64,000 nucleotides of DNA from Promethearchaeota archaeon (GTDB lineage: Archaea; Asgardarchaeota; Lokiarchaeia; Sigyniarchaeales; SOKP01). The notes beneath the pieces were generated by a model. The model was not told the origin of the DNA and made no database searches. It worked only from the letters and a program-made list of their open reading frames with translations. Each line of letters starts with the position of its first letter. Within the stretch, counting starts at the first letter, position 1. The stretch spans positions 352,001 through 416,000 of the forward strand of contig JAHPZA010000010.1 of the NCBI GenBank assembly GCA_019058445.1, given 5' to 3'. A program made the translations under genes and the position numbers. Shown one piece after another: positions 38,913 to 51,164 of this stretch.

Positions 38913-40109
38913 ATGGGTAGTAAAAAAGTCGGATTAATATATACCAATGAATACCAGCAATATAATTTTGGAGAACAACACCCGCTAAGACCGCTTAGAA
39001 TTAAACTTACGTATAGTTTAATGGAAAAGATAGGGCTCTTAAATAACGAAAGTCTTGCAATTATCGAACCACGGATGTGTACGAGAGAAGAATTGGAAAT
39101 GGTACATTCCACAGATTATATAGAAGCTGTAAAAAAATTAAGCGACGATCCCAAGAATAAGGAAATTTTACCTTATAAATATGGCTTAGGACCAGGAGAT
39201 AATCCTATTTTCAAAGGGATGTATGAAGCGTCCTCATTAGTTTGTGGAGCTAGTCTAGTTGCCGCCGATATAGTATGGAAAGAAAATGATTTTCGTTTTA
39301 CCTTTAATCCTGCAGGAGGACTTCATCATGCCATGAAAGATAAAGCTTCGGGTTTTTGTATTTTTAATGATATTGCTGTTGCCATTAAACATCTTCAAAA
39401 ATTAGATAAAAATATTAGAATTGCATATTTAGATATTGATTGTCATCATGGAGATGGCGTTCAATGGCTTTTTTATGATGATCCAAATGTTTTAACGATT
39501 TCTTTGCATCAAAGTGGGAAATTTCTGTTTCCAGGAACTGGGGATACTAAAGAGAGAGGTGATAGTGAGGGTGAGGGGTTTGCAATTAATTTTCCTTTAT
39601 TGCCGGGCACCAGTAATAAGATGTATTTGAAATTATTTAGAAGATGCGTACCAAGAATACTTGAAGCATATAATCCTGATATTCTTCTTACACAACTTGG
39701 AGTGGATACTCATTTTAATGATCCATTAACCCAATTGGGGCTCTCTATCTCCATTTATCGGGATTTAGGGCAAACAATGGAAACATGCGCCACAGATTAT
39801 TGTAATAATAGATGGCTTGCTTTTGGCGGTGGAGGTTATTCTATGACAGTAGTTCCCAGAGCTTGGACTATATTCTTATCAAAAATGCTTCATATTGATT
39901 TAGAAAACAAATTGCCTGAGAGTTGGATAAGAGAAGTAAAGCAAAATGTCCCTTATGAAGAGGTACCCTACTTATTATGGGATAGAAACGATAAAATCGA
40001 GGTACAACTCCTATCTCATCCCGAAATCGCCAAAAAAATGATCGATTACAATAAACAGCTAATCGAGTTATGTGAAGAAAAATACATTCCAGCCTTAAGT
40101 AAAATATAA
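38913..40109 (+). CDS. acuC: Class I-like histone deacetylase / AcuC family Zn-dependent deacetylase
   Basis: HPLRPLR, GDNP.F, GGLHHA, SGFCIFND, DIDCHHGDG, FPGTG, GGGGY. Confidence 0.93.
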   Translation: MGSKKVGLIYTNEYQQYNFGEQHPLRPLRIKLTYSLMEKIGLLNNESLAIIEPRMCTREELEMVHSTDYIEAVKKLSDDPKNKEILPYKYGLGPGDNPIFKGMYEASSLVCGASLVAADIVWKENDFRFTFNPAGGLHHAMKDKASGFCIFNDIAVAIKHLQKLDKNIRIAYLDIDCHHGDGVQWLFYDDPNVLTISLHQSGKFLFPGTGDTKERGDSEGEGFAINFPLLPGTSNKMYLKLFRRCVPRILEAYNPDILLTQLGVDTHFNDPLTQLGLSISIYRDLGQTMETCATDYCNNRWLAFGGGGYSMTVVPRAWTIFLSKMLHIDLENKLPESWIREVKQNVPYEEVPYLLWDRNDKIEVQLLSHPEIAKKMIDYNKQLIELCEEKYIPALSKI

Positions 40110-47595: not shown

Positions 47596-47944
47596 ATATT
47601 TGAGCAGGTGTTAAAAAATTCATTCTAATATTTTAAAAAAATCCAAATATTTAGGTTTTATAGCTAGTCGATTTAGGTTTTTTTTAATATCCTTTTTTGA
47701 ATCATTAAATTATAGAACATAATTTAAAGGATAAATTTAAAAAATAAAGAGTTAAAATAGACAAATTTTAAAAGAATTATAAATAATTATGCTCAAAAAT
47801 CAGATTATTCTCTCAAAAGGGAGAATATTAATGCATCGGGTTATAATTTAAATTTATTTTAATTCAATGAACGTATTTTCGAATTTCACTTTTGTCATAG
47901 GAAAATGAAAACATTTTTATAGTCGGTTAACTAATAATTGATCA

Positions 47945-48121
47945 AGAAAAACGGAACCATGATATCAAAATATATTCTTATACCTAAAGCCGAAAAAAAA
48001 AATCGGTAATACCTCAACCCTTAACCCTGTTATATATACACTCGCATCGGGTGAGTAGACGAATAGATAAATATGTCTCCTCTTTTTTTATAAAATAAGA
48101 ATCATGGTTTTCCGATTTTCT
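47945..48121. other. Structured non-coding element bounded by imperfect inverted repeats, with internal hairpins
   Basis: AGAAAAACGGAACCATGAT (47945-47963) is complementary to ATCATGGTTTTCCGATTTTCT (48101-48121). Inner hairpins GCCGA-(A)n-TCGGT (47989-48007) and ACTCGC-ATCGG-GTGAGT (48040-48056). Confidence 0.55.
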
Positions 48122-48138
48122 CTCTTTTTACTTTTTAT
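48063..48138. repeat. 76-bp direct repeat, copy 1
   Basis: atagataaatatgtctcctctttttttataaaataagaatcatggttttccgattttctctctttttactttttat; 72/76 identical to copy 2. Confidence 0.95.
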
Positions 48139-48151
48139 ACTGCTTTAATTT

Positions 48152-49780
48152 TTAACCATTAAGAGGATTTGGATTATTTATATTAAATTCTTGTAATTCA
48201 CGAAATGCCTTTTCTGTAGTTAAAGCTTCTGAAGTTAAATCAGATGCATATTTGATAAGCTTCTTATAATAACTATTAAAATTAAATAGAACTAAAAATT
48301 GGTTAAGTGTAATAAGTCTGCAATTTCTACCTTTTTGAATACTTCTAATTTCATTATTTATAAGATGGATTCTTTCCTTGGAATATTTACCATAAATAAC
48401 GATAAGCAATGGACGATCATCCCTCTGATAATTTTTATTAAGTTTTTGTAATATATGCTTGTTATTTTCAGCAACAGAAGTATAATCAATAGAAATTTCA
48501 TTCATACTTTCAAGATCTAATTGAATATCATCTAAAATCTCATAATTCATGATAATTTTTAACTTCTTATTTATTTTTATCCATGTATCAATTCTATGCA
48601 AAGAAACTGGATAATTAGAAAACTTTTCATTTTCAAATGTAACATAATTTTCTTTGAAGTGGATGAAGGAAATATCCTCTGCATAGATATGCATCAAACT
48701 TCCAATTCTTAAATGAAGGAGTTTTTCCCCCATGTAATTTTGCTTATATTCTAATATTAAATTATTGATAAAATCTTTTTCATTACTAGGAGGAGATTTA
48801 TACATCAATTTTTCAAGACGGTCTATAGTTTCAACACCAAAATTAAATTTTCCCTTTAAATAATCATAATGAGATGGAGTTATACTATTTAATTCATTTG
48901 AAAATTCAATCCTATTTGGATCATGATTAAAATGAACAATTCTAAAAAGAATTGATGCTTCTCTTAACGCGCTTAGATGAACATAAGATTCTTGCAAATA
49001 GTGCCATCGAATTAAAGCTATTGCTTCTGATTTAAATTTGATTAACTTTTCTTGTATCGGTATTTCTGTAGATTTTAATTTAATATTTAATAATTTATGT
49101 TCCATAAGAAGGTATGTTGGTAATTTAGGATGCCCTGAATCACGTTGCCCTGTCGTTATTATACTAACCTTTCCCTTTCTAGTAGAAATGTATTTAGATC
49201 TTAAAAATCCATAAAGCATAGTGGAAAATTCTCCTGAAGTAAACCCCACCTTTCCAAGAGGAATGTATCTAGAATACAAATCTTGAATGGATTCAATTAA
49301 ACGTGAAAATCCTACTTGTGAACTTTTCTTTATTTCTGAGGTTTTTACTTTATCAATTATATTCTTACATTCCAGAAAAAGAGACTTATTCTTTATCTTT
49401 TCTTTTAAATTAAAATAGATTCTCCTGTATGTACTTAATCTACCTTCCTTTCTAGAATGTGTCTTATACCATCCTTTACCCATTCCAAGAAAATCATTTA
49501 GAAATCTCTTATTAAAACTATTACCTCTCTTAATTTCTTCAAAATAATGACTTAGTAAATAACCAATTTCATTGAAAAATATTTCCTTAGTCATAGATGA
49601 TGTAATATCAGTATTATATGCTTGATATATATCTATGATTTCTCTTAGTTGTTGAAGGCTAATTCCATTTCCAAAGTATCCTTCAATTAGATGATATAAC
49701 TCACTTGTAGTTAGAGTTCCATAATATTTTTCAAAAAAATCTTGGAAAAATTCTTCGTTGGATTTATTAGTGGATTCCAT
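48152..49780 (-). CDS. Orphan protein with degenerate helical (HTH-like) repeats and putative C-terminal PD-(D/E)XK-like nuclease domain
   Basis: C-terminal IGSLMHIYAE ... FENE ... RIDTWI ... ISIDYT ... K..KNYQ...LLIVI pattern; assignment is by motif resemblance only. Confidence 0.5.
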   Translation of the reverse strand: MESTNKSNEEFFQDFFEKYYGTLTTSELYHLIEGYFGNGISLQQLREIIDIYQAYNTDITSSMTKEIFFNEIGYLLSHYFEEIKRGNSFNKRFLNDFLGMGKGWYKTHSRKEGRLSTYRRIYFNLKEKIKNKSLFLECKNIIDKVKTSEIKKSSQVGFSRLIESIQDLYSRYIPLGKVGFTSGEFSTMLYGFLRSKYISTRKGKVSIITTGQRDSGHPKLPTYLLMEHKLLNIKLKSTEIPIQEKLIKFKSEAIALIRWHYLQESYVHLSALREASILFRIVHFNHDPNRIEFSNELNSITPSHYDYLKGKFNFGVETIDRLEKLMYKSPPSNEKDFINNLILEYKQNYMGEKLLHLRIGSLMHIYAEDISFIHFKENYVTFENEKFSNYPVSLHRIDTWIKINKKLKIIMNYEILDDIQLDLESMNEISIDYTSVAENNKHILQKLNKNYQRDDRPLLIVIYGKYSKERIHLINNEIRSIQKGRNCRLITLNQFLVLFNFNSYYKKLIKYASDLTSEALTTEKAFRELQEFNINNPNPLNG

Positions 49781-49870
49781 GATAATATACTATATACTTG
49801 ATGTTTACTCTGTTTTAATTATTAAAACTATTTAGGCTATTTAAATTAAAACCCAGTAAAGAAAAATGAT

Positions 49871-49946
49871 ATAGATAAATATGTGTCCTCTTTTTTTATA
49901 AAATAAGAATCATGATTTTCCGATTTTCTCTCTTTTTCCCTTTTAT
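49871..49946. repeat. 76-bp direct repeat, copy 2
   Basis: atagataaatatgtgtcctctttttttataaaataagaatcatgattttccgattttctctctttttcccttttat. Confidence 0.95.
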
Positions 49947-50048
49947 TTGACGTGATTAATATCAAATTATTGTGATAACTAAAGAGTTTTTTATATGGGA
50001 CTATTTAAAGTTATATAAATTAATTTTATTTTTGTATTACACGAAATC

Positions 50049-51164
50049 ATGAGTATTGAAAAACTTAATAAAATACGTTCTCATGAAGCGTTTTTTGAAA
50101 ATGATATTGAGGCACTTTTTCTAATAAAGCCTCAAAATATCACATATGTGTTGGGTTTTAAAATCGAAAGTGATACATTTATCCTACTTCCAAGAGATGA
50201 TATGAATGATGGCAAGGTTATGGTGTTTGTAAACGCCCTCGAGATTGATCAAGTGAAGAAATTTATTGAACAAGATAAGGAATTTTCAAAAGTCATTAAT
50301 TTAATCCTCATTCCGGGAGGAAAACCAAAATTTGTTCAAAAAACCATCAATAAATTTGGGTTCAACAAAATAGGGTTTGAAGAGGATTTCGTTTCGGTCA
50401 AAAAATTTAGGGAATGGAAAGATAAATTAAATATTCCTAATTTTGTAGGAGCTACGAATATCATTCTTGATGCACGATTAACAAAAACTCAGGATGAAAT
50501 AGAGAGAATGCAAAAAGCTGCGAATTTGGGTGATATTGGATTTAAAGCGATTTTTGAGTCGATAAAAGAGGGAATGACCGAGGAAGAATTAGCGGCGGAG
50601 GCGGAATATGAGATGAGAAAAGCGGGATCAGAGGGAACTTCATTTGATACTATAGTAGCATCTGGAGAAAACTCTGCATTTCCTCATGCTAAAACTTCCA
50701 ATAAAAAAGTGGAGGATGGAGATATAGTTATTGTGGATATCGGGGCTCGATATAGTGGATATTGCTCAGATATGACGAGAACTTTTATTTTTGGAAAAAT
50801 TGACAAGATGAAAAAAAATTTAGTAAATTTGGTTAATCAAGGTCAGAAATACGCATTAGAGAATATAAAAGCGGATTTAAGCTGTATGGAAATGGATAAA
50901 CTTGTCAGAGATTACTTTATTGAAAATAATAAAGAGTGGGGTAAAAGATTTATCCATAGCTTAGGTCACGGAGTAGGAATTGATATTCATGAAAATCCTT
51001 ATCTTTCTCCTGTCTCTGAAGAGACATTGAAAGAGTTTATGATAGTAACCGTGGAACCCGGTTTATATATTCCCGGTTTAGGAGGCGCTCGAACTGAAGA
51101 TCAAATAGTGATCAAAAAAAATGGATATTTTTCATTAACTCATTCACAAAAGTATTATTACTAA
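50049..51164 (+). CDS. pepQ: Xaa-Pro aminopeptidase/prolidase (M24B)
   Basis: SFDTIVASG.NSAFPH, VDIGA...YCSDMTRT, HSLGHGVGIDIHE, TVEPGLY, RTED. Confidence 0.93.
   Translation: MSIEKLNKIRSHEAFFENDIEALFLIKPQNITYVLGFKIESDTFILLPRDDMNDGKVMVFVNALEIDQVKKFIEQDKEFSKVINLILIPGGKPKFVQKTINKFGFNKIGFEEDFVSVKKFREWKDKLNIPNFVGATNIILDARLTKTQDEIERMQKAANLGDIGFKAIFESIKEGMTEEELAAEAEYEMRKAGSEGTSFDTIVASGENSAFPHAKTSNKKVEDGDIVIVDIGARYSGYCSDMTRTFIFGKIDKMKKNLVNLVNQGQKYALENIKADLSCMEMDKLVRDYFIENNKEWGKRFIHSLGHGVGIDIHENPYLSPVSEETLKEFMIVTVEPGLYIPGLGGARTEDQIVIKKNGYFSLTHSQKYYY

Follow-up and report, generated by a model that had tools for sequence, protein, structure and literature searches.

A 542-aa open reading frame (ORF) that stands alone between two 76-nt direct repeats in the genome of a Promethearchaeota archaeon (assembly GCA_019058445.1) raises the question of how it came to lie there and what kind of element it forms. 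The window, that is the whole stretch of DNA analysed, comprises 64,000 nt (positions 352,001 to 416,000 of contig JAHPZA010000010.1), and coordinates without a contig label refer to it. Its genome, a metagenome-type assembly of 4.6 Mb in 10 contigs, is called G000 below; other G numbers denote genomes of relatives, L numbers denote contigs or loci, and P0001 is the 542-aa protein. An earlier note, made from the letters of the window, had described the ORF, the repeats (copies A and B, 72/76 positions identical) and a 19-bp segment complementary to the core of both copies, all of which were confirmed at their positions (Table 1). As read from the sequence, 13 nt separate the stop codon from the end of copy A, and 90 nt separate the ATG of P0001 from copy B upstream of it. 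BLAST with the repeat returned these two copies only from the whole 4.6-Mb assembly, in which the ORF is single-copy. The cassette (48139-49870 plus one repeat copy) is 1.8 kb long and holds a single gene; the GC content of the ORF is 26.6%, compared with 31.0% for the genome and 33.3% for the peptidase gene pepQ downstream. The comparisons described below show that, in this lineage, the cassette entered the 3' half of a non-coding RNA (ncRNA) gene, which ancestrally lay ~100 nt before pepQ.

The insertion became visible from its absence elsewhere. Eight relatives carry the ncRNA upstream of pepQ with one repeat copy and no P0001 ORF, so that the single-repeat empty sites envisaged in the earlier note do exist. 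The flanks of the nearest relative, G007, are ~82% identical; through one copy of the 76-nt segment its sequence is colinear with both 47736-48138 and 49871-50354, and its ncRNA is found ~100 nt upstream of pepQ. Six further genomes (G004, G006, G008, G009, G012 and G018) have the ncRNA ~100-300 nt upstream of pepQ with nothing between, and the distance in G011 is ~0.9 kb. The G011 spacer holds a 197-aa hydrophobic/membrane ORF on the opposite strand (L016:1743-2336), which has no flanking repeats and is unrelated to P0001. Judged from these genomes, the spacer between ncRNA and pepQ is a recurrent insertion spot, and pepQ is the ancestral downstream neighbour of the ncRNA rather than a part of the element. 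None of 60 relatives contained a close homologue of the P0001 ORF, and a search for related loci gave nothing among genome contigs and two short contigs among metagenome contigs.

The two repeat copies differ in what adjoins them. Copy A runs on from the 5' part of the ncRNA, agrees with the family consensus wherever this is invariant and pairs with the 5' arm in the closing stem; with it the RNA looks complete and functional. Copy B adjoins the native upstream region of pepQ, and its right flank is colinear with the empty site of G007. It reads TGTCC, in contrast to the invariant TCTCC of every other genome in which the copy is clear, and one pair of the closing stem is lost by a G-to-A change. 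From its position, now 1.8 kb further downstream, and from these two changes, copy B is therefore taken as a displaced, decaying 3' half. To its left no significant ncRNA homology was detected, the score being below the shuffle mean. Upstream of both repeat copies the GTTAT/TAGAT junction of the ncRNA is interrupted in G000.

BLAST searches with 47935-48140 against 40 relatives found the structured element in 22 of the 24 genomes of the same family (f1). A covariance model built from 18 copies matched 20 of 25 family f1 genomes, with one copy per genome, and nothing in 126 genomes that represent 26 further families of the phylum; it scored 139.7 bits on the plus strand compared with 17.4 bits on the minus strand. 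The 19-bp segment and its complement pair with each other in the plus-strand minimum-free-energy fold (z -2.8) and form the closing helix. Compensatory changes were observed in 13 of the 15 pairs of this helix (0/500 shuffles reached the observed values), and 96.9% of cells were paired compared with 30-44% when the partner was slid, in an alignment that had been fitted to the model and is hence biased towards structure. G-U pairs in the closing helix and in the variable hairpin are sensible on the plus strand only. The arms enclose ~70 invariant nt (ATATATTCTTATACCTAA, AATACCTCAACCCTTAACCCTGTTAT and TAGATAAATAYGTCTCCTCTTTT); roughly 50 invariant nt of the ncRNA are unpaired and C/U-rich, and a T-tract lies 3' of the 3' arm. 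About 25-35 nt upstream of the 5' arm, 17 relatives share a palindrome, TTTTCC..TCATAGGAAAA, followed by TTTAAATA/TTTATATA. On these comparative grounds the structured element is an independently transcribed ncRNA host gene of ~150-180 nt with its own predicted TATA promoter.

The gene after the ncRNA is usually pepQ and in some genomes another one, and in G005 the ncRNA lies in reverse orientation to pepQ, from which it follows that the ncRNA is an independent gene rather than a pepQ leader. The G005 locus (L022:1493-1655; L022:2-1099; L022:1774-2976) continues with a histone-deacetylase gene, a homologue of which lies 8 kb upstream of the ncRNA in G000 (38913-40109), reflecting local rearrangement around the RNA gene. 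As the 19-bp complement is a covarying RNA helix that is kept in genomes without the ORF, it is no element terminus, and the proposal that the unit is bounded by inverted repeats had to be given up. A second arrangement was seen in G023, where the whole ncRNA gene with its promoter is tandemly duplicated with a period of 476 nt (L028:1429-1599 and L028:1905-2075); these copies are 92% identical over 101 nt, and G023 is the sole genome seen with two.

Known RNA classes did not account for the ncRNA. Rfam 15 gave no match to it at E<=1 in the window and none at E<=5 in six relatives that lack a 30-nt insertion found in G000 (see below). An identity as tRNA was rejected since ARAGORN found none, as RNase P RNA because this RNA sits elsewhere in G000 (contig 3), and as signal recognition particle (SRP) RNA because that RNA sits elsewhere in relatives. 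When the invariant blocks were compared with the 16S/23S rRNA of a relative for guide-type complementarity, only chance 9-10-mers were found, and the G000 genome contained no complementary target of these blocks at <=3 mismatches. In the invariant block 48019-48031, AACCCTTAACCCT amounts to ~1.8 heptamer copies and is reminiscent of a telomerase template; this reading was rejected, as (GGGTTAA)n arrays are absent from G000, and the likeness is therefore probably a coincidence. Small-subunit rRNA, large-subunit rRNA and SRP RNA gave no match in the 92.6%-complete G000 assembly and are present in relatives; probably these genes were not binned or not assembled.

Two small insertions were noticed inside the ncRNA. 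The first, of 30 nt, occurs in G000 and G007 only, is unique to the ncRNA locus in both genomes, and ends, to within 1 nt, where the 76-nt repeat begins (48063). By eye it has a relaxed bulge-helix-bulge (BHB)-like geometry, and it could represent a mini-intron, an expansion segment, or a part or footprint of the element; under the last reading, G007 would have arisen through a deletion between the repeats. The second, of 40 nt, was seen in the ncRNA of G008 (L025:1380-1583; compare 48012-48033 of the window) and lies in another invariant block, between CCTCAA and CCCTTAACCC. By eye it is BHB-like as well, with a central helix CCUC/GAGG and both junctions 2 nt 3' of the helix strands, and it is a candidate archaeal intron in a gene for neither tRNA nor rRNA.

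With the insertion site described, the protein itself was analysed. A word-indexed search led to three close homologues of P0001, and a profile search of 1.84 billion representatives to 51 matches at E<=1e-3. The family is limited to AT-rich archaeal metagenome contigs and, as far as these collections reflect it, is very rare and patchy. Its common module is the C-terminal ~180 residues, which occur alone or fused to varied N-termini. No match beyond chance was obtained from Pfam for P0001 or any of the 52 family members, and NCBIfam, PADLOC, PHROGs and a PDB sequence profile gave none for P0001.

An AlphaFold2 (AF2) model calculated from the 52-sequence alignment (predicted local distance difference test, pLDDT, 89.5; predicted template modelling score, pTM, 0.88) showed helices up to residue 350, followed by an alpha-beta-beta-beta-alpha-beta domain with a core of H353-377, E382-387, E396-402, E428-435, H441-449 and E458-463 (H, helix; E, strand). 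Foldseek with residues 352-505 gave nothing at E<=1e-3, its top rows being MspJI, the restriction-like endonuclease (RLE) domain of R2, BstEII, Ecl18kI and PspGI. VIA-align, run on the list of Foldseek and exhaustively on 48,161 chains, gave Z values of 5.3-7.2 over the same residues for Can2 (7.2), Upx, AF1548, BstEII, R2, EcoRII-C, R.BspD6I, McrC and XisH. Nearly all top matches over this region, in four independent look-ups, were PD-(D/E)XK enzymes. Rows of an ESM Atlas shape search included Mrr_cat, PDDEXK_4 and CoiA_nuc clusters, and the nearest clusters of a language model were AlwI and FokI_cleav_dom (0.87-0.88), to be read as a lead only.

The conserved columns of the family include E368, E385, D398, D432, K446 and Y451, with D432, K446 and Y451 at >=90% in the 52 sequences. 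The motifs picked out by eye beforehand (G..H..E, E, RID and IDYT) correspond to G360/H364/E368, E385, R396-I-D398 and I431-D432-Y-T434, and all fall on conserved family columns. In the model, E368 is located in helix 1, D398 in strand 2, D432-Y-T434 in strand 3, and K446 and Y451 in the next helix; E368, D398, D432-x-T434 and K446 are candidate active-site residues. We read the C-terminus as a PD-(D/E)XK nuclease domain in a variant arrangement with a displaced lysine and a predicted nuclease activity, and the restriction-endonuclease-like tail proposed earlier is in agreement with the modelled fold and its conserved acidic and lysine residues. Three helical or helix-turn-helix (HTH)-like units had been suspected to precede it. 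Folded alone, the N-terminal 350 residues (pLDDT 87.9) did give three helical bundles, and the HTH part of the suggestion found no match; the bundles had only generic four-helix-bundle matches with Z <=6.8, under the noise of helical proteins.

Table 1. Features of the locus, in coordinates of the window
Feature	Position	Strand	Remarks
ncRNA promoter	47884..47922	+	palindromic element TTTCACTTTTGTCATAGGAAAA at 47884-47905; degenerate TATA box ATTTTTATAG at 47913-47922; putative role in transcription
ncRNA gene	47945..48121	+	closing-helix 5' arm 47945-47963 and 3' arm 48103-48121; variable hairpin ~47994-48013
30-nt lineage-specific insertion	48034..48063	+	hairpin ACUCGC-AUCGG-GUGAGU between the invariant GTTAT and TAGAT blocks
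Repeat copy A	48063..48138	+	3' half of the ncRNA: invariant block, closing-stem 3' arm, T-rich terminator
P0001 nuclease gene (predicted)	48152..49780	-	helical bundles ~60-153, 155-266 and 268-350; PD-(D/E)XK-type domain ~352-505
P0001 leader and putative promoter	49781..49870	-	TTTAAATAG box at 49837-49845 (minus strand), a putative promoter element
Repeat copy B	49871..49946	+	decaying 3' half of the ncRNA, displaced; runs into the native sequence before pepQ
pepQ-like M24 Xaa-Pro aminopeptidase	50049..51164	+	Pfam Peptidase_M24 (4.5e-67), Creatinase_N; outside the element

A second insertion of the same kind was found with the homologue P0002. It lies on L008 in a 5.1-kb island directly after a gene for a von Willebrand factor A (vWA) protein, and the island is flanked by two copies of the last 132 nt of this gene. 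Three close relatives (L068-L070) show the empty site, in which the vWA gene is followed directly by a MazE-like gene with one 132-nt segment. The two L008 copies differ at 34/136 nt but at only 6/43 aa; from so few amino acid and so many nucleotide changes both must have evolved as coding sequence, and one of them must therefore have arrived with the island. Besides P0002 the island holds a WD40 protein, a membrane methyltransferase-like protein and a 323-aa protein with the look, by eye only, of a caspase/gingipain-type protease; no recombinase was found in it. The topology is alike in the window and in L008, namely a whole conserved gene, an island whose nuclease gene runs on the opposite strand and a displaced 3' fragment of the conserved gene, at targets that are unrelated to each other, and the P0001-family gene is the only gene common to both islands. 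For this case, with its empty sites in relatives, the idea that homologous ORFs may be repeat-flanked held. The vWA protein (~740 aa) is 82-92% identical across Asgard metagenome-assembled genomes, which is unusual for an uncharacterised protein, and L068 (6573-11974), L069 and L070 share the block order Roadblock/LC7, vWA, MazE-like, 248 aa, actin.

The remaining contexts were more varied. In five of the seven loci outside G000 the family gene stands beside a ~530-aa protein that combines a conserved novel N-domain of ~235 aa with a WD40 propeller (L008:4740-6254, L013:7020-8639, L060:3560-5215, L061:1100-2701 and L010:3318-4043); the N-domain alone forms a separate 241-aa ORF in L010, and the WD40 partner is absent from G000. 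In L013 and L044 the P0001-family N-domain is found either detached or joined to a different large protein. The other neighbour of the family gene in L060 is ArdC-like, which suggests a mobile-element context. A sensitive self-BLAST of the other homologue contigs, most of them only 3-5 kb long, gave no further flanking repeats, and the covariance model of the ncRNA matched none of the eight homologue loci.

Neither the P0001 ORF, in family searches, nor any ORF of at least 100 aa across 35.6-55 kb of the window contained an integrase, transposase or recombinase domain, in accordance with what had been noted before. No DNA methyltransferase domain was found near P0001, the neighbours being the ncRNA, pepQ and small ORFs. 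Both among the relatives of G000 and in the L008 case, the insert is present in some genomes and absent from others at one defined site of a conserved gene. Therefore, from the recent insertion polymorphism, the duplicated 3' ends, the nuclease as the sole shared gene, the lack of a recombinase and a topology that is documented for homing ORFs in fungal mitochondria, we favour a homing-type selfish nuclease element that would carry a substitute 3' end of its target, a preference that is tentative and stays somewhat short of an even chance. P0001 would cut the uninterrupted target in cassette-free genomes, plausibly around the GTTAT/TAGAT junction of the ncRNA gene, and repair from the occupied allele would then copy the cassette in, while the substitute 3' end would keep the essential target gene intact. 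The destruction of the junction in both resident copies would confer self-immunity. Recombination between the repeats would lead to loss of the element, which would explain why the empty site of G007 still carries the 30-nt insertion. That P0001 founds a new archaeal (Asgard-type) family of homing-like PD-(D/E)XK endonucleases, whose cassettes or small islands bring substitute 3' ends for strongly conserved targets, a lineage-specific ncRNA here and a near-universal Asgard vWA protein in the other case, and for which the 30-nt hairpin would be the footprint or immunity mark of a cycle of gain and loss, is a further-reaching proposal that we put forward with reserve and hold for rather unlikely.

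Several points weigh against the homing interpretation. Cleavage activity, the target site and transfer are predictions. All structural matches have Z values below 8, and the argument for the fold therefore rests on the consistency of the matches and on the conserved residues. The place of the canonical (D/E)xK is taken by D432-x-T434 with the conserved lysine 12 residues later, so that catalysis is not certain. Only 4 nt distinguish copies A and B, and either copy suits the 5' stem arm of G000, so that the duplication could have arisen in situ. The longer homologue contigs L013 and L044 are without flanking repeats, and here the idea of repeat-flanked homologues fails. The 30-nt insertion may be an older intron or expansion whose edge coincides with the repeat by chance (about 1-2%). 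Finally, the linkage to the WD40 protein and the N-domain fusions are more reminiscent of a conflict or defence module of two genes that travels as cargo than of a homing gene sufficient by itself.

This last point leads to the strongest alternative, a remnant or non-autonomous integrative element (like a cis-mobilisable element, CIME) that would have entered by Campbell-type attB/attP recombination with an integrase encoded elsewhere or lost, the nuclease being cargo, for example of a WD40 conflict/defence module. A repeat that equals the 3' part of an RNA gene and restores this gene is the classic signature of tRNA-gene integration, and the mismatches are distributed as expected for hybrid attL/attR sites that share an identical core of 22 nt (48108-48129). 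The link to the WD40 partner in five of seven contexts, the ArdC-like mobile genetic element gene in L060 and the domain fusions, which are typical of conflict systems, fit this explanation too. Nevertheless, no integrase, resolvase or transposase was found in either island or within ~12 kb in the window, so that two independent islands are both without one; the WD40 partner is missing from G000, the repeat occurs there only as the flanking pair, and the ORF is single-copy. We regard such an integrative element as possible, though on balance unlikely.

Without any dedicated mobility, horizontal gene transfer and ordinary or illegitimate recombination in a variable spacer could have brought in a solitary restriction-like nuclease (type IIS or type IV-like) or a host repair nuclease, together with a local duplication of 76 bp. 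The spacer is indeed variable, as seen from the 197-aa ORF in G011, the tandem ncRNA in G023 and the inverted ncRNA in G005, and copies A and B are nearly identical and native-like. The recurrence of a conserved gene, an island and a displaced 3' end at an unrelated target with a homologous nuclease speaks against such a passive acquisition, as does the identity of only ~76% between the L008 copies, which are too diverged for plain homologous recombination; a methyltransferase partner, moreover, is not present near the ORF. This course of events we judge improbable.

An RNA-guided or RNA-regulated nuclease, which had been among the earlier suggestions, or an insertion sequence (IS)-like or miniature inverted-repeat transposable element (MITE)-like unit bounded by the 19-bp inverted repeats, has physical adjacency and the 19-bp complementarity in its favour and is already contradicted and highly improbable, as the ncRNA is a single-copy syntenic host gene in >20 genomes without the protein, the homologue loci are without the ncRNA, the 'inverted repeat' is a covarying RNA helix present in insertion-free genomes, and the duplication is 76 bp rather than short, with two copies of the repeat and one of the ORF in the genome. 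In a metagenome-type assembly of 10 contigs without rRNA and SRP RNA genes, one might suspect a chimeric join at the 76-nt repeat; such an artefact is scarcely credible, given repeats that are 95% and not 100% identical, two clean junctions, an intact ORF with homologues in similar contexts and flanks that are colinear with relatives.

Apart from the choice between these explanations, the analysis led to two independent, cleanly resolved insertion polymorphisms, in which islands with a P0001-family gene duplicate the 3' ends of conserved genes without a recombinase, to a protein family with a predicted restriction-type nuclease domain that has no curated annotation, and to a strongly conserved ncRNA without annotation, which is single-copy and found in one archaeal family only and whose function is directly testable. 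If the proposed endonuclease family is real, no free-standing homing system would have been described before it in these archaea, and the ncRNA would be marked as functionally essential. Should the nuclease drive its own insertion, homing elements with a 'substitute 3' end' would extend from organelles and phages to archaeal chromosomes, possibly with a new nuclease specific for a long site. If it does not, the locus would still represent an integration hot spot, with a candidate nuclease/WD40 conflict module in archaea related to the ancestor of eukaryotes.

Among known systems, integrative elements at genes for tRNA or small RNA (tyrosine recombinase elements, CIMEs) also have repeats derived from the 3' part of an RNA gene, a restored gene and empty sites, whereas the cassette described here has no integrase in it or near it, measures 1.8 kb with one gene and occupies a target other than a tRNA gene. 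With type IIS enzymes such as FokI, AlwI and Nt.BspD6I/R.BspD6I, P0001 shares a helical N-terminus followed by a C-terminal PD-(D/E)XK-type domain, the structural rows being weak (2p14, Z 6.0; 6qnz, Z 5.0; 2fok, Z 4.9); it differs in having no match to Pfam RE_AlwI or FokI_cleav_dom, no methyltransferase and a lysine off the DxK position. I-Ssp6803I is reportedly a small, intron-encoded PD-(D/E)XK homing endonuclease that is selfish at an RNA gene. In contrast, P0001 has 542 aa and is free-standing; the listed structural rows do not include I-Ssp6803I, and the two may nevertheless be related. An arrangement with a displaced 3' end is said to have been first analysed for a mobile ORF in Allomyces atp6. 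In the fungal mitochondrial genes cob and atp6, the gene, an endonuclease ORF and a displaced C-terminal fragment of the gene are found around homing endonuclease ORFs (PMC6279837). The fungal ORFs are of the LAGLIDADG or GIY-YIG type and organellar, whereas P0001 is PD-(D/E)XK-like and encoded on an archaeal chromosome, on the strand opposite to its target, which is an ncRNA, and homing is only proposed for it. Common to the fungal ORFs and the cassette are an intact gene, one or more nuclease ORFs (here predicted), a displaced partial 3' copy, presence/absence polymorphism and a highly conserved target.

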